A stretch of DNA of 64,000 nt, taken from the NCBI GenBank assembly GCA_964449585.1, contig CAYUZE010000004.1, positions 51,063-115,062 of the forward strand. Reading direction: 5' to 3'. A program made the translations under genes and the position numbers. The notes under the pieces are model-generated. The model did no database searches and was not told where the DNA came from. It saw only the letters and a list, made by a program, of their open reading frames with translations. This stretch comes from an uncultured Gammaproteobacteria bacterium (lineage in GTDB: Bacteria > Patescibacteriota > Microgenomatia > UBA10105 > UBA927). Positions 3,033 through 32,646 of the stretch are shown one piece after another (the first letter of the stretch is position 1; every line of letters begins with the position of its first letter).

Positions 3033-3061
3033 TTGGCACATCGGAGTGTGATAAAATATGA
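3033..3061 (+). promoter_or_regulatory. Candidate sigma70-like promoter (TTGGCA ... TGtGATAAAAT) placed to transcribe the repeat/tRNA-Glu array
   Basis: A -35-like TTGGCA and an extended -10-like TGTGATAAAAT lie immediately upstream of repeat unit A (3069). Identified by eye only. Confidence 0.3.
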
Positions 3062-3068
3062 CATACGC

Positions 3069-3170
3069 GCCCCGTTCGCAATCCAGGAGTGAACGAGCAG
3101 AGTCATCGAAGCGAGTACTACTCCTGGTGAGTGCCACGTACCCGTGGCCAGTCCAGCGCAATTAACAACT
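3069..3170 (+). repeat. Repeat unit A: tRNA-Glu 5' fragment (gccccgttcg), then a 70-nt two-hairpin element (stems CCAGGAG/CTCCTGG and CCACG/CGTGG), then a truncated second element 5' end
   Basis: The first 10 nt are identical to the 5' end of the tRNA-Glu at 3307. The element runs 3079-3148. Its hairpin stems differ from copies B and C by compensatory changes. Confidence 0.7.
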
Positions 3171-3177
3171 AAATATT

Positions 3178-3270
3178 GCCCCGTTCGCAGTCCAGCGCTT
3201 AATGAGCGAATGCATATTCGCGAATCGTAGCGCTGGTGAGTGTCGCGTAACCGCGACCTAGCGGCCGGGG
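3178..3270 (+). repeat. Repeat unit B: tRNA-Glu 5' fragment, then a 70-nt element (stems CCAGCGC/GCGCTGG and TCGCG/CGCGA with a nested GCGAATGCATATTCGC palindrome), then a tRNA D-loop-like ctagcggcc
   Basis: gccccgttcg, then element 3188-3257, then a sequence matching the tRNA-Glu D-loop. The element sits exactly after GTTCG. Confidence 0.7.
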
Positions 3271-3306
3271 AAGTGATTGATAGCAGAGTATTTAACAATT
3301 TAATAC

Positions 3307-3380
3307 GCCCCGTTCGTCTAGCGGCCTAGGACGATTCCTTCTCAAGGAATAAATCGCCGGTTCGAATCCGGCACGGGGTA
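3307..3380 (+). tRNA. tRNA-Glu (anticodon CUC)
   Basis: 74 nt. Acceptor stem GCCCCGU/ACGGGGU, D-arm UCGUCUAGCGGCCUAGGACGA as in bacterial tRNA-Glu, anticodon stem AUUCC/GGAAU with loop UUCUCAA, T-arm GCCGG-UUCGAAU-CCGGC, discriminator A. Confidence 0.85.
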
Positions 3381-3391
3381 CTCACAAAATA

Positions 3392-3417
3392 ATCCGGCAC
3401 ATTGCCGGATTTTTTTT
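3392..3417 (+). terminator. Rho-independent terminator after tRNA-Glu
   Basis: Hairpin ATCCGGC-acatt-GCCGGAT followed by a T8 run. Confidence 0.7.
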
Positions 3418-3451
3418 GTGAATATTCGCATGCGCGAATTTGAACCGGCTA

Positions 3452-3546
3452 GCCGGTTCGCCGTCCAGCGTTTAACGAGGGGAGTCTTCGACACGAGTCG
3501 TAGCGCTGGTGAGTGCCGCGTAACCGCGGCAATCCGGCACGGGGTA
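3452..3546 (+). repeat. Repeat unit C: tRNA T-stem fragment (gccggttcg), then a 70-nt element (stems CCAGCGT/GCGCTGG and CCGCG/CGCGG), then the tRNA-Glu 3' end (aatccggcacggggta)
   Basis: The element (3461-3530) is inserted exactly between GTTCG and AATCC of a T-loop copy. The 3' flank is identical to the last 16 nt of the intact tRNA. It is preceded by the palindromes ATTCGCATGCGCGAAT and GAACCGGCTAGCCGGTTC. Confidence 0.7.
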
Positions 3547-3612
3547 CTTACGCAATCTCCTCACATTTAGCCCTATAGTACGTTCTCCGTGGTATAATTT
3601 GTTTTCATCGCT

Positions 3613-4089
3613 ATGGCAAAAGAACGTCCTCAAATATACGAGCACCTCGTCGTGTCAGACGAAATGGTCGAGTACGCGCGTGTGCTCCGATCCGTTGCAA
3701 AAGGGGGGAGTAACGTTGTCGAGACTGCGGATTGGACGGTACAGAGTTTTTCGCATGCGCGCTATGCTGCGGATTGCGTGTATCATCCTGGCGGCACCGA
3801 ACAGGCGGTATTTTCGTTTGTCATGGCGGAGCGCCGCCAACAGATAGAGATGGAAAACACGCATCGCCGTGCACGGGGAGGAAGCGGAGTGAGCGCGTTT
3901 TCCCACCTGGAACACATGGCGGCAGCCCTTTCCCGAATGGAGAATAAACCGGTATGGATGACCTATCCGCTATACGGACAGAAAGATACCGAACAATTTC
4001 TCCTCCGTCGCGGCTATACCAAAGTGCTCTATTTCCCCATCGGTTCACTTATCCCAGCCCCTGCATTGGCATGGACGTACGCCGCATAA
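3613..4089 (+). CDS. Hypothetical protein (158 aa)
   Basis: Long ORF with an upstream TATAAT-like box. No recognisable motifs. Confidence 0.5.
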   Translation: MAKERPQIYEHLVVSDEMVEYARVLRSVAKGGSNVVETADWTVQSFSHARYAADCVYHPGGTEQAVFSFVMAERRQQIEMENTHRRARGGSGVSAFSHLEHMAAALSRMENKPVWMTYPLYGQKDTEQFLLRRGYTKVLYFPIGSLIPAPALAWTYAA

Positions 4090-4131
4090 CTATTTCATTT
4101 CGATTATCAAACACCGGGTGGGGAATGACCG

Positions 4132-4332
4132 TTATTTCTCCGACGGGATAAATATCCAGCAGAGGATATAGGGGATGATACCGGGAACGCCTCCCGGAAG
4201 GAGGGCAAACACCCACAGCAATCGGACGAGGGTTACGTCGACATTGAGATAGTTTGCCACCGCCAAACATACACCGGCAATTTTCCTGCCTTTTTTGGGA
4301 CGAACTAACTTTTTGACCGCTGCCTGTGCCAT
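4132..4332 (-). CDS. PspC-domain small membrane protein
   Basis: KIAGVCLAVANYLNVDVTLVRLLWVFALLPGGVPGIIPYILCWIFIP matches the PspC domain signature. Start taken at the internal Met (MAQAAVKK). Confidence 0.65.
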   Translation of the reverse strand: MAQAAVKKLVRPKKGRKIAGVCLAVANYLNVDVTLVRLLWVFALLPGGVPGIIPYILCWIFIPSEK

Positions 4333-4398
4333 ACTTCCTTCAGTATATATCGATATATTTCCCGCTGTACAGCGGTTCCGTGGTATAGTGGAGGGATT

Positions 4399-4914
4399 AT
4401 GGCAGAGTCGTCGGAACAACCTACAACGCGTGAGCTCCTCCCCGCGCCTTCCAAAGAGAAGGAAACAACCATCGCGAGTTTCCGTGAGAAGCGACTCGTT
4501 ATGTGGAAATCCATGGTGGAGACCATGAAACAGCATCCGAATATTTCCCGGGTGCTTTCCGCGGCGGTCAATGCCACCGTGGGATCGTACGTAAAGTTAA
4601 GCGCGGAGGCATACACGGGAAAAACCATAGACCAGCAAAATCTCACCCCGCTCGGAAGAATAGTCCATGCCTTTATCGTGGGAACGGGACTTGCTTCATA
4701 CGGGCTTATTGCCGCAGGGAGACCGGAAATTGCGGCGATTACGTACGGATCGTCGTGGGCGGCGTATGCGTTGATGTACGGACCGGAAATTATCGCGCCG
4801 ACGCTTCGCGCGGCGGCAAAGGGTATCGAGACAAAGCATCAGACTACCGCAAATATTTTGCAAACGGTCGCCGCGGTGGTAGAGAAACCGAAGAAATTGT
4901 TTTTTAAGGTATAA
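4399..4914 (+). CDS. Hypothetical protein (171 aa), probable membrane segment
   Basis: ORF with a GGAGGG RBS and a -10-like TATAGT upstream; hydrophobic central region. Confidence 0.5.
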   Translation: MAESSEQPTTRELLPAPSKEKETTIASFREKRLVMWKSMVETMKQHPNISRVLSAAVNATVGSYVKLSAEAYTGKTIDQQNLTPLGRIVHAFIVGTGLASYGLIAAGRPEIAAITYGSSWAAYALMYGPEIIAPTLRAAAKGIETKHQTTANILQTVAAVVEKPKKLFFKV

Positions 4915-4916
4915 CC

Positions 4917-5087
4917 ATGGACGAACTGAACGAGATTATCGAGCAACTTATCTCGCTAGGCGAAGATCGGGATGAGTTGGAATTTTGGCGCACGGTGGCA
5001 CCTTCACTGCCACCGGACAAGCGAGAGGAGCTTCTCAACAATCTGACCGAAGAACTTCAAACACTCCAAAAGCCGTCCGCATCGTAA
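4917..5087 (+). CDS. Possible small acidic protein (56 aa)
   Basis: ATG 2 nt after the previous stop; MDELNEIIEQLISLGEDRDELEFW... Below the ORF-track size cutoff. Confidence 0.3.
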   Translation: MDELNEIIEQLISLGEDRDELEFWRTVAPSLPPDKREELLNNLTEELQTLQKPSAS

Positions 5088-5134
5088 CGTTTCCCCAGTA
5101 GATGAGAATGGGTGTCTTTGATATACTATAGGGT

Positions 5135-5674
5135 ATGTCAATAGAACACGGCGATGAGCTACTCAGCAAAATGTTCCCTCGGGCACGGTTTATTGATCGC
5201 ATAGAATCTATCGTGTTGCAGGAGGGAAACGATGCGATCCATGTATATCCACGGGAGTTTACGCTCAATCATATCGCACTCTATCAGGCACATACGGAAG
5301 AGTTGGCGAGGATGGTGGAACACGCAGATACCCGTGTTGCGGTCGCCGGCCAACGAATTCCCGTGCGTATTAACCGTATCCGTTCGATTCACACCCTTCC
5401 GGATGATCGGGTATTTACCCGTAGCAGATATGCCGGTCCGTTTTCGCTTGATACCTGTCTCGGAAAATGGGGATTACCACGGTGGTTTAGCATTGCAAAA
5501 CCATCCAGTAAACTGATTCGCGAATTGGATATCGCAATTGATAAAGCGGTCGTGCACGACGTCGGCTATGACAATATTCCCAATGAATTTGAACTTGCTA
5601 CCAAAAATATTCACATTGAGCGGGCGGGATTTACGATTGTCGATATTGCCGCCATCCTGGAACGGATATGGTAA
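5135..5674 (+). CDS. Hypothetical protein (179 aa)
   Basis: ORF with coding-like composition. No recognisable domain. Confidence 0.5.
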   Translation: MSIEHGDELLSKMFPRARFIDRIESIVLQEGNDAIHVYPREFTLNHIALYQAHTEELARMVEHADTRVAVAGQRIPVRINRIRSIHTLPDDRVFTRSRYAGPFSLDTCLGKWGLPRWFSIAKPSSKLIRELDIAIDKAVVHDVGYDNIPNEFELATKNIHIERAGFTIVDIAAILERIW

Positions 5675-5714: not shown

Positions 5715-6134
5715 ATGTCCTGGTTTGTTTATGCAGTACTTTCGGCGATTTTTGCAGCCCTTACCGCAATTCTTGCCAAAATAGGCATAAAAAACGTCGA
5801 TTCGAATCTGGCGACCGCAATCCGCACGATCGTTATCCTCATCTTTGCCTGGGGCATTGTGTTTTGGCAGGGAACGGCGAGCAAACTCTCTTCAATCTCC
5901 AACTATTCGCTTGTTTTCCTCATCCTTTCCGGGATTACCACCGGGCTTTCCTGGCTTTTTTACTTTCGCGCGCTCCAATTAGGGAAAGCGTCCCAGGTTG
6001 CTCCCATCGATAAATTGAGTTTGGTGCTCACTATCGTGCTTGCAGCCGTGCTTCTTAAGGAAAAAGTGAGCGCCTCGATCGTTGTCGGCGGGATTCTTAT
6101 GGCCATCGGAGCCATACTGATTAGCCTCGGCTAA
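5715..6134 (+). CDS. Small EamA/DMT-family 4-TM transporter
   Basis: A 140-aa protein of four hydrophobic helices with an EamA-like pattern (..FYFRALQLG..S.V.PIDKLSLVLT..). Start at the ATG at 5715. Confidence 0.6.
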   Translation: MSWFVYAVLSAIFAALTAILAKIGIKNVDSNLATAIRTIVILIFAWGIVFWQGTASKLSSISNYSLVFLILSGITTGLSWLFYFRALQLGKASQVAPIDKLSLVLTIVLAAVLLKEKVSASIVVGGILMAIGAILISLG

Positions 6135-6297
6135 CCCCTGAATTGAGGCTAATTGCGGAGTGTTTCTTTCTTGACAAGCCAAAATTTGTTTGAGACAATC
6201 TAACCTACGTCTGAAGGCTGTATAGCCGAAAGATAACGAATTTATCGCTCCCCGGCATTAAATACCGTGGGGAGTTTTTTTTAAACGAGAGGATAGT

Positions 6298-31639: not shown

Positions 31640-32646
31640 ATGGACGAAGATATCAGAAAACGCGCCACAGAACTTCTCATTCGTCTTGACATGGACGGGA
31701 TGCGCAAACACATCCGCGAGCTTGAAGCCGAGAGCATGCATGAGAACTTCTGGAAAGATCCCGAATCCGCCGCCGGGAAAATGCAGGAACTGGCTACCCT
31801 CCAAAAGGAACTTGCCGAAACGGAAGATTTTTCCCTGCTTCTCGAGCTGGGCGAAGAAGAGAAACTTAGGGCGGAAATAACCCGTTTGGAATTTGCGTTG
31901 TATCTTTCCGGCCCTTACGACAAAGGGAACGCAATTATCGCGCTTCATTCTGGTCAGGGAGGAACGGAAGCCATGGATTGGACGCAGATGTTGTATCGGA
32001 TGTACACGCGGTATATCGAACGCAAAGGTTGGAAAATGGAAGAGATGGATTATACGGCAGGTGACGAGGCGGGAATAAAAAGTGTCACCATGGAAGTGAC
32101 CGGTAGGTTTGCGTTCGGCTTTTGAAAGCCGAAGCGGGAGTACATCGACTGGTCCGGCAGTCGCCCTTTAATGCGGATAAGCTCAGACAAACCTCCTTTG
32201 CCATGGTGGAAGTACTTCCGATCGTTGACGAGGTAGGGGTTGATATCCGTGAAGAGGATATCGAGTGGGAATTCTATCGTGCGGGGGGAAAAGGCGGACA
32301 GAATGTGAACAAAGTATCGACTGCAGTGCGGCTGAAGCATAAACCGTCGGGCATCATCGTTGCCAGTCAGGCTCAGCGATATCAGGGACAAAATAGGGAA
32401 TTTGCCTTAAAAATGCTTCGGGCGAAATTATGGGAGCTTGAGGAAGCAAAAAGAAGAAGTCAGGATAAAGCATTTCGCGGCGAATACAAAACGCCGGGGT
32501 GGGGGAATCAGATACGTTCCTACGTGTTGCATCCCTACCACATGGTCAAGGATTTGCGTACGGAACACGAAACGTCCGCAACCGACCGGGTGCTTGACGG
32601 AGACATCGAGGATTTCATCCTGGCATACTTGAAAAAAATTTCTTGA
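31640..32646 (+). CDS. prfB: Peptide chain release factor 2 (prfB), reading frame interrupted at a TTTT run (32120-32123); the two ORFs 31640-32125 and 32122-32646 join by a -1 shift
   Basis: SPF tripeptide (VRQSPFNA) and GGQ ([13 protein letters not shown]). The N-terminal part is in frame at the canonical site (CTT GAC, not CTT TGA C). Homology continues ..GRFAFGF|[13 protein letters not shown] across the break. Confidence 0.75.

Follow-up and report, generated by a model that had tools for sequence, protein, structure and literature searches.

A folded 70-nt element placed after GTTCG in partial tRNA-gene duplications of Candidatus Gottesmanbacteria

An element of fixed length, 70 nt, was found in three copies around a tRNA-Glu gene and in more than 30 further copies in related contigs, all of Candidatus Gottesmanbacteria/Patescibacteria. 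The element folds into two hairpins on the tRNA-sense strand, lies immediately 3' of a GTTCG-like pentamer in tRNA-derived sequence, behaves as a discrete unit and is present or absent among close relatives. We proposed, with slightly less than even confidence, that the 70-nt unit is a discrete, non-autonomous insertion module recognised as a single strand by a logic like that of IS200/IS605, surviving in redundant or self-rescuing partial tRNA duplications. The tRNA fragments beside the copies belong to layers of partially duplicated tRNA ends, a system conserved in Gottesmanbacteria which was absent from the preliminary description of this DNA and which needs to be explained jointly with the element.

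The window, i.e., the whole stretch of DNA analysed (64 kb), contains an intact tRNA-Glu(CUC) gene at 3307-3381. Three two-hairpin copies of equal length had been described around it, and both their coordinates and their architecture (hairpin 1, UGAGUG, hairpin 2) were confirmed from the sequence, the folds and a gapless alignment of A (3079-3148), B (3188-3257) and C (3461-3530). Copies located after position 10 of a 5' fragment of tRNA-Glu were termed "up", and those that follow position 57 in a T-arm/3' fragment from tRNA-Glu, -Cys or -Arg were termed "down". The features of the locus were as follows:

3049-3057, + strand: promoter-like box, extended -10, TGATAAAAT (TGnTAAAAT), 11 nt ahead of the outer 5' tRNA fragment (from sequence)
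3069-3078, + strand: outer 5' tRNA fragment GCCCCGTTCG, identical to tRNA-Glu 1-10 (direct repeat family D3; sequence)
3079-3148, + strand: element copy A, 70 nt, consisting of CAAU, hairpin 1, UGAGUG and hairpin 2 (covariance model R1, 85.3 bits; fold)
3149-3159, + strand: stub CAGTCCAGCGC abutting A, the initial 11 nt of a further element copy with the same sequence as the start of B (sequence)
3160-3177, + strand: leader-like motif AATTAACAACTAAATATT, paralogous to the one that directly precedes the tRNA (repeat D5)
3178-3187, + strand: second 5' tRNA fragment GCCCCGTTCG (repeat D3)
3188-3257, + strand: element copy B, up type (covariance model R1, 90.5 bits)
3258-3266, + strand: D-loop fragment CTAGCGGCC, tRNA-Glu 12-20 (repeat D6)
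3267-3306, + strand: variable spacer and conserved leader motif ATTTAACAATTTAATAC directly before the tRNA (multi-genome alignment)
3307-3381, + strand: intact tRNA-Glu(CUC) with two GTTCG sites, at positions 6-10 and 53-57 (T-loop) (ARAGORN; Rfam tRNA RF00005, 58.9 bits)
3382-3419, + strand: trailer and intrinsic terminator (terminator scan; repeat D4)
3424-3439, + strand: small hairpin ATTCGC-ATGC-GCGAAT within the spacer, conserved in L026 and L043 (sequence, MFE fold)
3442-3460, + strand: hairpin P0, GAACCGGC-ta-GCCGGTTC(G), in which the 5' half of the T-arm (tRNA 49-57) pairs with its own inverted copy (MFE folds of 22 down-type units)
3461-3530, + strand: element copy C, down type, at T-loop 57/58 of the fragment (covariance model R1, 84.5 bits; fold)
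3531-3548, + strand: 3' tRNA fragment AATCCGGCACGGGGTACT (tRNA 58-76 plus 2 nt of trailer), contiguous with a flank common to L024 (repeat D2; alignment with L024)

The fragments abutting the copies were identical to the adjacent tRNA-Glu (positions 1-10, 12-20, 49-57 and 58-76), as had been claimed. Both A and B were directly preceded by GCCCCGTTCG, B was followed by CTAGCGGCC with T11 missing, and C was flanked by GCCGGTTCG (tRNA 49-57) on the left and by AATCCGGCACGGGGTACT on the right. Exact matches to the motif CTGGTGAGTG occurred three times in 64 kb and were confined to this locus; the covariance model, run over the 64-kb window with filters off, recovered these three copies and no others. 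Both the promoter-like box ahead of A and the lone terminator that follows the tRNA, pointed out earlier, were present. A simple sigma-70 scan, which needs a -35 box, did not flag the box at 3049-3057; in relatives, a TGnTAAAAT or TGnTACAAT box preceded tRNA-Glu or the outer 5' fragment by 11-27 nt. In the terminator stem (3391-3411), AATCCGGCAC (tRNA 58-67) occurred once more, paired with its complement, and a T-run followed. The P0 hairpin occurred in lineage-specific compensatory versions, e.g. GAACCGA/TCGGTCC in L007. The block TTAACAAnTAAATA was kept in all up-type units, and (G)CTAGCGGCCG was invariant behind every up-type copy in six genomes. It was also observed that the 129- to 165-nt units of the window contained no ORF. 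The 11-nt stub after A, P0 before C, and a Y:R pair with tandem G·A/A·G in hairpin 1 were not part of the preliminary description.

Selection on the structure of the stems, suggested earlier from the three copies, was borne out by covariation in alignments of 13 and 33 copies. In the smaller alignment pairing reached 91.6%, 14 pairs showed double changes and none of 500 shuffles was as good; in the larger one pairing was 92.5% and double-change cells numbered 153 against 45 expected (0/500 shuffles). An independent prediction by RNAalifold gave the same structure. The mismatches in the stems were G·T in 14 cases and A·C in 2, therefore one strand, the tRNA-sense one, folds. Hairpin 1 carried an invariant Y:R pair (CG in 19 and UA in 13 of 33 copies) together with the tandem G·A/A·G, the joining strands CARU and UGAGUG were invariant, and the unpaired nucleotides were nearly so. 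Pairing of the T-stem across the element was mostly but inconsistently kept in down-type copies, and an upstream GTGCCGGAT/ATCCGGCAC stem was found at some loci only. No conserved closing helix was found around up copies, and those around down copies were inconsistent.

The elements remained unmatched in Rfam 15 even at E up to 10, the hairpin, hammerhead, twister, pistol and hatchet ribozymes, T-box and tmRNA included, and at the gathering threshold only the tRNA of the locus passed; the view that standard annotation does not cover the element was correct. A likeness to the hairpin ribozyme (CCAG...UAUUAC...CUGGU) was rejected, as the similar bases lay in variable columns 39-40 and Rfam gave no match. 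A K-turn was rejected as well, two Watson-Crick pairs separating the tandem G·A from the internal loop. The idea of a T-box-like specifier GAG facing the tRNA-Glu anticodon was dropped because UGAGUG was also present in Cys- and Arg-associated copies.

The further copies, for which a search after GTTCG had been suggested, were recovered by flank-free pattern scans and the covariance model in many genomes at 60-92 bits, and every one was preceded by GTTCG or a one-mismatch variant. With the flank-free pattern used for genome scans, this was the case for 10 of 10 true matches (6 exact, 4 with one mismatch). Placement just 3' of the pentamer, in one orientation and with no target duplication, held in relatives found by patterns free of flanks: all 34 covariance-model matches with a tRNA in the locus had the orientation of that tRNA, and the flanks were not duplicated across the element. 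Up copies were found at tRNA-Glu alone, the sole one of the three tRNAs with GTTCG at positions 6-10; tRNA-Cys and tRNA-Arg have the T-loop site only, and tRNA-Glu has both. Within the window, 3 of the 134 GTTCG sites were occupied, all three tRNA-derived, and 131 were empty; eight other CCSGTTCG sites were empty. All copies everywhere lay in tRNA-derived sequence and were not dispersed over unrelated loci. An uninterrupted tRNA adjoined the fragment at every locus, and on the down side the fragment was always split at 57/58 by the element or by a shorter hairpin. In L035 and L023, the element was located in the T-loop of largely complete, displaced old tRNA-Glu genes; a different, functional tRNA-Glu beside them was without GTTCG at 6-10, and its T-loop in L035 had AGTTCG.

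The element was also delimited by comparison between genomes. Up- and down-type copies of different genomes were up to 87-90% identical with unrelated flanks, and the boundaries of homology were exact, at GTTCG| on the left and at the end of hairpin 2 on the right. The two types interleaved: the up copy B of the window was 90% identical to a down copy (L026), and the down copy C was 87% identical to an up copy (L017). Trailer/terminator modules ~90% identical to that of the window were present in L043 and L026, and the L043 element was ~96% identical to that of L012 (sequences compared by eye), i.e., the element assorts independently of the left-hand trailer/P0 module.

Among genomes at ~90% amino-acid identity, copy A was present in the window and L014 and absent in L024, where GCCCCGT-GCAGT was left. 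The 129-nt unit with B was found in the window only and was absent from the close relatives L014 and L024, and the three genomes had one, one and three different downstream layers. The arrangement of A followed by a stub was also present in L014, and in L005 an A-like copy was followed by a 17-nt stub. A abuts the stub of what would be an older copy, a sign of tandem re-use of one target. Decayed copies occurred beside intact ones (43 bits in L005; 52-nt and 5'-truncated in L024; remnants in L043 and L045), as expected for a birth-death process, and junctions of older layers were often ragged, with 5'-truncated elements. At orthologous loci down to 58% amino-acid identity the elements still scored 70-92 bits, and the spacers were unalignable. 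The flanking fragments followed lineage-specific changes of the resident tRNA (L007, L010, L028), therefore recent local events or gene conversion are needed.

We proposed that the module is read as a folded single strand in the tRNA sense and placed immediately 3' of GTTCG in tRNA-gene sequence, the targets being positions 6-10 and T-loop 53-57 of tRNA-Glu and the T-loop site only of tRNA-Cys and -Arg. Insertion into a single-copy functional tRNA would be lethal, so that copies would persist only by one of two routes. They may reside in redundant partial duplicates of tRNA ends, or they may belong to composite units which bring a replacement tRNA end and would thereby regenerate the gene. An up unit would have the order element, tRNA 12-20, spacer, leader, tRNA 1-10, and a down unit the order tRNA 58-76, trailer, terminator, spacer, tRNA 49-57, element. 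Repeated events, together with illegitimate or short-homology recombination between the repeats, would build and erode the stacks at tRNA-Glu, -Cys and -Arg in Gottesmanbacteria. We infer that insertion takes place enzymatically at the DNA level, as we do the kind of enzyme, the self-rescue route and the way in which the partial duplications originate.

The earlier reading as a small mobile element stood as far as the discrete unit and its presence or absence among close relatives are concerned; the copies were not dispersed and no transposase was found. The TnpA(Y1)/TnpB partner suggested earlier, or any other transposase or integrase, was found neither in the 64-kb window nor near other copies. 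Pfam searches of 61 of the 73 window ORFs of at least 70 aa (including all of those >150 aa) gave no transposase, HUH/Y1, TnpB, integrase or RT match. The search for Y1 TnpA (PF01797) by tblastn with hand-entered queries over ~0.4 Mb of related loci gave no match, and ORF clustering over all loci for a partner protein yielded syntenic housekeeping genes only. Neither an empty T-arm fossil (GGTTCGAATCC without insert) nor a circle junction of the element was seen.

The T-loop DNA GGTTCG|A is universally conserved. A more far-reaching form of the insertion proposal, which we consider rather unlikely, is a previously undescribed tRNA-gene parasite of Patescibacteria: the folded single-strand module of 70 nt would enter this T-loop DNA and the look-alike D-arm site of tRNA-Glu, spreading as a self-rescuing unit that supplies a new tRNA end together with a leader or terminator of its own. 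The essential tRNA genes present in single copy would then be rebuilt and layered again and again, via a host or unknown enzyme instead of a classical transposase, or via an RNA intermediate.

The retention of elements at orthologous loci with unalignable spacers could equally mean host-level selection on RNA. In such a case the element would be a functional structured RNA, located in the pre-tRNA 5' leader (up) or produced by read-through or its own transcription (down), and possibly a signal for processing or quality control, a module that binds protein or a stable sRNA freed by RNase P/Z; the tRNA fragments might be needed in cis, e.g. as enzyme-recognition mimics. At up-type loci, a single tRNA promoter can be recognised (TGnTAAAAT), 11-14 nt ahead of the outer 5' fragment, and there is no terminator in between, hence the up element must be transcribed with tRNA-Glu. 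The sense-strand structure agrees with this role, as do the near-invariant unpaired bases and the tandem sheared G·A with its covarying Y:R pair, a combination that is a typical RNA motif, and the conservation at orthologous loci across 58-90% amino-acid identity, which the spacers do not share. In L005 and L045, moreover, the sole copy upstream of the promoter is the degenerate one. However, down copies lie behind a strong intrinsic terminator belonging to each unit, and neither a match in Rfam nor a consistent closing helix supports the role. Up copies, down copies, both or stacks may be present and close relatives differ, therefore tRNA-Glu has no fixed requirement for the element in cis. 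Assigning it an RNA role would also leave the tRNA duplications, stubs, truncated copies and layering unexplained, and we regard it as unlikely. A tRNA that is split or permuted, or whose 5' and 3' fragments assemble in trans, was rejected as unsupported, for nothing supplies an anticodon arm and the fragments are separated by a terminator.

It is similarly doubtful that the element is a structured cis-site (arm), resembling attC, of small integrative cassettes which recombine with tRNA ends by means of a recombinase acting in trans. The core would then be tRNA sequence (58-76 in down units, 1-10 in up units) and the arrays would be cassette arrays with or without cargo, a scheme to which we give as little credence. 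Segments bounded by repeats of the tRNA 3' end (GGGGTACAA) in L018 and L036 point to it. A 1.1-kb cargo cassette (L036) and cargo-less units of ~165 nt both end in spacer, P0, element and fragment, and in L018 one unit is adjoined by an island of 4.2 kb that contains a truncated large serine recombinase; the two L018 units share a block of identity that begins at the 3' strand of hairpin 1 and extends to the core. In L021, an Arg-type element and T-stem seem to have been joined to the acceptor end of a Cys tRNA. Integron attC sites, too, are specific to one strand, conserved in structure and variable in sequence, and Patescibacteria have a family of large serine recombinase genes with 3' ends overlapping tRNA genes. 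Yet homologues of the L018 recombinase lie at tRNA-Gln and tRNA-Asn loci without the element, the window units have neither recombinase nor cargo, integron core sites are absent, the element lies within the block of tRNA-like identity and not beside it, and the ragged junctions of many older layers are unlike site-specific recombination. A search for free or viral forms returned a single chance match within a coding region in two IMG/VR scans and none in INPHARED phages or PLSDB plasmids. Crossover by a serine recombinase at the palindromic TTCGAA (central CG) would fit the left junction, but there is no CG before AATCC on the right, so that such a crossover at both ends is excluded by sequence. 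That nothing specific is present, i.e., decaying tandem tRNA duplications with chance palindromes or an assembly artefact, is extremely improbable. Partial tRNA duplications and T-arm palindromes are indeed common at the locus. The A-B-tRNA order was, however, reproduced in two independent Logan read-set assemblies (L001, L002), which rules out the assembly duplication named earlier as an alternative, and the score of the many copies, the shuffles, the fixed length and the invariant unpaired bases have already refuted this reading.

Literature searches retrieved no description of the 70-nt element. Whichever reading holds, neither Rfam nor standard annotation includes it, and it can be found with the covariance model from this work. 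A tiny, structured, protein-less module marks the T-loop 57/58 and D-arm 10/11 junctions at several tRNA genes in a lineage whose ultra-small genomes can hardly afford junk. If mobile, it would be a minimal tRNA-targeting element of a new kind and a route by which essential tRNA genes are replaced and given new promoters and terminators time and again, and it would account for the hypervariable DNA beside tRNAs in CPR genomes and the resulting assembly breaks. If an RNA, it would be a new conserved motif within pre-tRNA-Glu leaders.

Bacterial group I introns have been described in tRNA genes of Patescibacteria (PMC13011429). The element resembles tRNA introns (group I, archaeal BHB introns at non-canonical positions, split tRNAs) in its defined tRNA position, its sense orientation and an intron-bearing lineage, but it is located at 10/11 and 57/58 instead of the anticodon loop, no copy lies inside an otherwise intact sole tRNA gene, and an intron-less tRNA is always adjacent. 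It is also far too short for a group I intron and lacks the group I core (no Rfam match).

tRNA genes are classic landing pads for mobile DNA, and the known elements use integrases and leave clean partial repeats. As in islands targeted to tRNA genes by tyrosine or large serine recombinases, and in tandem arrays such as the Prochlorococcus tycheposons, an intact tRNA is followed by direct repeats of its 3' end in successive layers, some loci hold a recombinase island (L018) and close relatives are hypervariable. Here, the units measure 129-165 nt and have no integrase, 5'-end duplications occur as well, and in place of the uninterrupted block of tRNA identity of att-site repeats there is a block split at 57/58 (or 10/11) by the 70-nt element. 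Att-type 3'-end repeats bounding integrase-type DNA were seen at L018, with its truncated recombinase, and not in the units of the window, and no further att repeat was found downstream in the window as an island boundary. The scattering of tRNA fragments in archaea is a related case of tRNA-targeting integration (PMC3293823).

With integron attC sites the element shares a strand-specific fold in which structure is conserved, paired sequence varies and a few unpaired bases are invariant, and with integron arrays the short units with or without cargo beside a fixed entry point and the structured site at the 3' end (L036, L018). It differs from them in that the 33 copies are without R''/R' cores (RYYYAAC/GTTRRRY), no IntI was found in the window and attI is absent; a tRNA end serves as the entry point, the element of up-type units is 5'-terminal and older junctions are ragged.

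From the PATEs of the IS200/IS605 family and, more loosely, from REP elements mobilised by Y1 HUH transposases, the element differs in several ways. No Y1 transposase was found in the available sequence, and the element is restricted to tRNA-derived GTTCG, every copy lying in a partial tRNA duplication of a kind not made by classical PATEs. Hairpin 1, with its tandem G·A and conserved internal loop, is elaborate for 70 nt. The left hairpin starts 4 nt from the end, and the right end is the foot of hairpin 2, apparently unlike IS608/ISDra2; IS608 is cleaved ~10 nt past its hairpin. The element is nevertheless like PATEs in being small and non-coding, in its insertion 3' of a fixed short motif kept at the left flank, in its single orientation with neither terminal inverted repeats nor target-site duplication, in its hairpins on one strand, and in that a second copy may land between the motif and an older one.

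The three structured 70-nt copies noticed around a tRNA-Glu in the preliminary description were confirmed, and they were extended by related loci, a covariance model and independent assemblies. The stub, the hairpin preceding copy C and the composition of the terminator stem had been missed before.

Features of the tRNA-Glu(CUC) locus in the window
3079-3148, element copy A, 70 nt, ungapped against B and C
3149-3159, stub, the first 11 nt of a further element copy, abutting A
3188-3257, element copy B, 70 nt, ungapped against A and C
3307-3381, intact tRNA-Glu(CUC), the sole intact gene in 3040-3550 (ARAGORN; Rfam tRNA, 58.9 bits)
3391-3419, intrinsic terminator of the tRNA; its stem (3391-3411) consists of AATCCGGCAC, a T-loop/T-stem 3' fragment, and its complement
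3442-3460, hairpin of the T-arm 5' half and its inverted copy, just before C
3461-3530, element copy C, 70 nt, ungapped against A and B
3613-4089, ORF without Pfam or PHROG match
4132-4536, minus strand, ORF without Pfam or PHROG match
4399-4914, ORF without Pfam or PHROG match

The folded copies shared one layout of CARU, hairpin 1, UGAGUG and hairpin 2. Both A and B were preceded by GCCCCGTTCG (tRNA positions 1-10), B was directly followed by CTAGCGGCC (positions 12-20), and C was flanked by GCCGGTTCG (positions 49-57) and AATCCGGCACGGGGTACT (positions 58-76 and two trailer bases). Paralogous leader motifs (direct repeat family D5), also missed before, occupied 17-18 nt before each GCCCCGTTCG. 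The exact CTGGTGAGTG motif occurred three times in 64 kb, always within A, B and C, and an unfiltered run of the covariance model on the window returned the same three copies only. Two independent read-set assemblies (L001 and L002) showed the same A-B-tRNA arrangement. It was concluded that the locus was real, and an assembly duplication was excluded.

The proposed covariation of the stems held in larger alignments. With 13 copies, 91.6% of cells were paired, double changes affected 14 of 21 pairs and none of 500 shuffles reached the observed value; in slid controls pairing fell to 30-44%. With 33 copies, pairing was 92.5%, and 153 double-change cells were observed against 45 expected (0/500 shuffles). 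The same fold was predicted independently by RNAalifold. Hairpin 1 was composed of an 8-bp outer stem, a small internal loop, an inner helix and a variable stem with a tetraloop. The three central pairs of the outer stem alternated between GAG/CUC, CGC/GCG and CAG/CUG, the inner helix comprised A-U, Y:R (CG 19, UA 13; n=33), G·A, A·G and G-C, and a second tandem G·A was present in the inner part of many copies. The unpaired C1 A2 R3 U4, U13 A14 A15, U38, U41 and UGAGU(G) were invariant or near-invariant. Stem mismatches were G·T in 14 cases and A·C in 2, and therefore the tRNA-sense strand is the one in which the structure is recognized, either RNA or single-stranded DNA, rather than a symmetric duplex site.

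The element was new to annotation, as had been suspected, being unannotated and matching no Rfam family even at E values up to 10. A one-genome-per-species scan with a pattern wholly internal to the element, CCAGNNNTNAAYGAGN{18,34}CTGGTGAGTG, returned 14 stretches; 10 had an identical 51-nt spacing, and all 10 belonged to Candidatus Gottesmanbacteria or unclassified Patescibacteria MAGs. A further 20 loci came from a metagenome scan with a less strict internal pattern. Copies beyond the window were recovered in number: the covariance model (R1) gave 39 matches over the collected loci and the window, and more in loci retrieved via an unrelated neighbour gene. Three pairs (L015/L029, L022/L030 and L009/L032) were duplicate samplings of one sequence. 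Searches of IMG/VR, INPHARED and PLSDB recovered no copy. The range of the element appears limited to Gottesmanbacteria-like Patescibacteria, in which it is the mark of a hypervariable set of duplicated tRNA ends. The MAGs of the species scan included one labelled 'uncultured Gammaproteobacteria bacterium', with the element in L004 (CAZHOQ010000014.1) and L008 (CAZHOQ010000001.1); the gene neighbours matched Gottesmanbacteria loci, and the label or binning is probably wrong.

The reported insertion just 3' of GTTCG was maintained in related loci on both sides of the tRNA, and all 34 matches with a tRNA in their locus lay on the strand of that tRNA. Units 5' of the tRNA (up) consisted of an extended -10 box (TGnTAAAAT), 11-14 nt, GCCCC(G/C)TTCG, the element, (G)CTAGCGGCCG, about 30 variable nt and TTAACAAnTAAATA, followed by the tRNA. 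These were confined to tRNA-Glu (CUC and UUC), because among tRNA-Glu, -Cys and -Arg only tRNA-Glu had GTTCG at positions 6-10. On the 3' side (down), the tRNA was followed by a trailer, an intrinsic terminator, a spacer, usually the T-arm hairpin P0 ending in GGTTCG, the element, the T-loop 3' half, the T-stem and acceptor 3' strands and 2-3 trailer bases; such units were found at tRNA-Glu, tRNA-Cys and tRNA-Arg(CCU). The fragments reproduced the resident tRNA, lineage-specific changes included (GGTTCA/ATTCCGGCACGCGCCTCA for Cys, TCGGTCCG/AATCCGAC in L007, ...GGCTGGGGGTA in L028 and GCCCCCTTCG in L010/L033). The placement 3' of GTTCG was invariable in these two non-homologous tRNA contexts. 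Within the window, the element was missing from 131 further GTTCG and 8 further CCSGTTCG sites.

Up and down copies were intermixed and formed no separate groups by sequence. The copy nearest to B (up) was that of L026 (down, 90%), the one nearest to C (down) was that of L017 (up, 87%), and the flanks of these copies were unrelated beyond GTTCG. The element also assorted independently of the sequence to its left. The down element of L043 was ~96% identical to that of L012 when compared by eye; the trailer/terminator/P0 module of L043 was ~90% identical to that of the window, with different elements in the two. The outer-stem triplets GAG, CGC and CAG were seen in both contexts, which is hard to reach by parallel stepwise compensation. 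Trailer/terminator modules ~90% identical to the window's were noted in L026 and in L043; the L043 module belongs to another tRNA-Glu locus, and the proteins of that genome are only ~75% identical to those of the window.

Further, the orthologous tRNA-Glu(CUC) locus was compared among relatives: L014 and L024 (~90% amino-acid identity in neighbouring proteins), L005/L045 and L012 (72-76%) and L017 (58%). Upstream, the window had A, the stub and the B unit, whereas L014 had A and the stub but lacked the B unit; the two differ here cleanly by 129 nt, with GCCCCGTTCG repeats at the boundaries. In L024, both A and the B unit were absent, and what remained was GCCCCGT-GCAGT, in which the 5' fragment runs directly into the start of the stub. 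Downstream, the window and L014 each had one layer, with differing terminators and elements, and L024 had three, of which one held a deleted copy (52 nt), one a copy truncated at its 5' end and one a full copy. The outermost downstream fragment ran into the same conserved flank in the window and L024; the L014 sequence stopped earlier. Two complete up units stood in tandem in L043, truncated copies occurred in the stacks of L043 and L045, and in L016 two units were separated by 1.4 kb and lacked a tRNA in their vicinity. Turnover was rapid, with units gained, lost, stacked and decaying.

Some other 3' fragments of tRNAs held hairpin inserts of 15-27 nt at the T-loop junction that the element uses, GGTTC(G)/.../ATCCGGCAC; two ended in TTATTC. 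Such inserts may derive from the 70-nt element by deletion or represent a separate family.

Shorter inserts and large serine recombinase genes in related loci
L004, 3797-3845, shorter hairpin insert
L045, 5872-5925, shorter hairpin insert
L009, minus strand, about 6080-6155, shorter hairpin insert
L018, 3917-4816, large serine recombinase gene
L039, 9391-10790, large serine recombinase gene
L040, 10001-11596, large serine recombinase gene

Relative to L036, two segments separated the tRNA from an older unit in L018: a 165-nt unit that was new and an island of 4.2 kb, which encoded an HTH protein and a large serine recombinase in truncated form. In L036, a 1.1-kb cargo segment ended in spacer, P0, element and fragment. 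All segments of both loci were bounded by GGGGTACAA, the tRNA 3' end. Homologues of the L018 recombinase were widespread in Patescibacteria, with 3' ends overlapping opposite-strand tRNA-Gln or tRNA-Asn, and no element was found at those loci. In one family of Patescibacteria large serine recombinase genes, the last codons lay on the strand opposite the 3' portion of a tRNA gene (Gln, Asn or Glu), and many database homologues were C-terminal halves of ~300 aa with a zinc-ribbon domain only. Near the recombinase/tRNA-Asn locus on a Patescibacteria contig, genes for an RVT_1 reverse transcriptase and bAvd formed a pair resembling a diversity-generating retroelement (L040, 4310-5716), accompanied by GIY-YIG and HNH genes; it was unrelated to the element.

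In L035 (545-875), a different complete tRNA-Glu(UUC) was nested at anticodon-loop position 35/36 of an older, otherwise complete tRNA-Glu carrying the 70-nt element in its T-loop. The new tRNA had CCATCG in place of GTTCG at positions 6-10 and AGTTCG in the T-loop; L023 was arranged similarly. The insert of ~183 nt, which included the tRNA, had complementary flanks and inverted ends (CCCAGCAC...GTACTGGG). In Patescibacteria tRNAs, group I introns have been reported at the unusual position 35/36 (PMC13011429); the present insert, however, measured only ~183 nt and held a tRNA.

A TnpA(Y1)/TnpB partner had been suggested, and none was found in the window or the related loci. Pfam scans covered 61 of the 73 window ORFs of at least 70 aa, every ORF above 150 aa included. 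The matches were housekeeping (Lon, PNP, GNAT, GreA, AspRS-like, SerRS, SecA, RuvABC and cell-envelope genes), 13 of the 61 were unannotated, and no transposase, integrase, HUH protein or reverse transcriptase was among them. A tblastn search for Y1 transposases, with approximate queries, gave no match in any locus, and ORF clustering across loci returned syntenic neighbours only. Two or three ORFs without a Pfam or PHROG match (window 3613-5500) separated the tRNA locus from EamA/GreA. These ORFs may be lineage-specific cargo adjoining the tRNA; the matching interval in L045 was much shorter, but no additional tRNA 3' repeat marked a distal end. A peptide chain release factor was split into two overlapping ORFs (31640-32646; PCRF, 31640-32125; RF-1, 32122-32646) mid-protein, away from the early prfB frameshift site; a frameshift, decay to a pseudogene or an error in sequencing could each account for this.

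Any explanation had to account jointly for a bounded, strand-specific, structured 70-nt unit, its fixed place 3' of GTTCG, the partial duplicates and the turnover. Chance or artefact was excluded as the origin of this pattern. We tentatively favored a DNA-level insertion module, with self-rescue or redundancy explaining survival, which directly accounted for the sharpness of the unit, its position and its turnover. A folded single strand would be what is recognized, with insertion 3' of the fixed pentamer. The restriction of the element to partial tRNA duplicates adjoining an intact tRNA would follow from selection against other insertions, these tRNA genes being single-copy and essential. Survivors would be insertions into redundant fragments, or composite units regenerating the gene: an up unit ends in the leader and tRNA 1-10, a down unit starts with tRNA 58-76 and the terminator, and inserting either one after GTTCG would make the tRNA whole again. 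Layers would then be added and trimmed as the resulting repeats recombined, illegitimately or through short homology, with which the ragged older junctions agreed.

It seemed unlikely that the element was a functional RNA, a reading consistent with up copies lying necessarily within the pre-tRNA-Glu leader, with the RNA-like motif and with retention of the element where spacers diverged. It was equally doubtful that small integrative units of a cassette-like kind used the element as their folded arm, a reading supported by the architecture of L018/L036. The mobile-element reading of the preliminary description remained the best available but was only partly supported; the discrete unit, the position rule and the turnover spoke for it. 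The element was rated a small site-specific non-autonomous element, and something more unusual was a real possibility.

Literature searches yielded nothing resembling the element. They did return group I introns residing in tRNA genes of Patescibacteria (PMC13011429) and, for archaea, a model in which a mobile element fragments tRNAs (PMC3293823). The element was not filed in the PATE family of IS200/IS605-derived non-autonomous elements, because the enzymology of insertion was one that we infer, no enzyme was identified and its copies, unlike those that define PATEs, were not dispersed. Its logic was nevertheless like that of IS200/IS605-type elements, with a folded single strand and a fixed pentamer 5' of the insertion.
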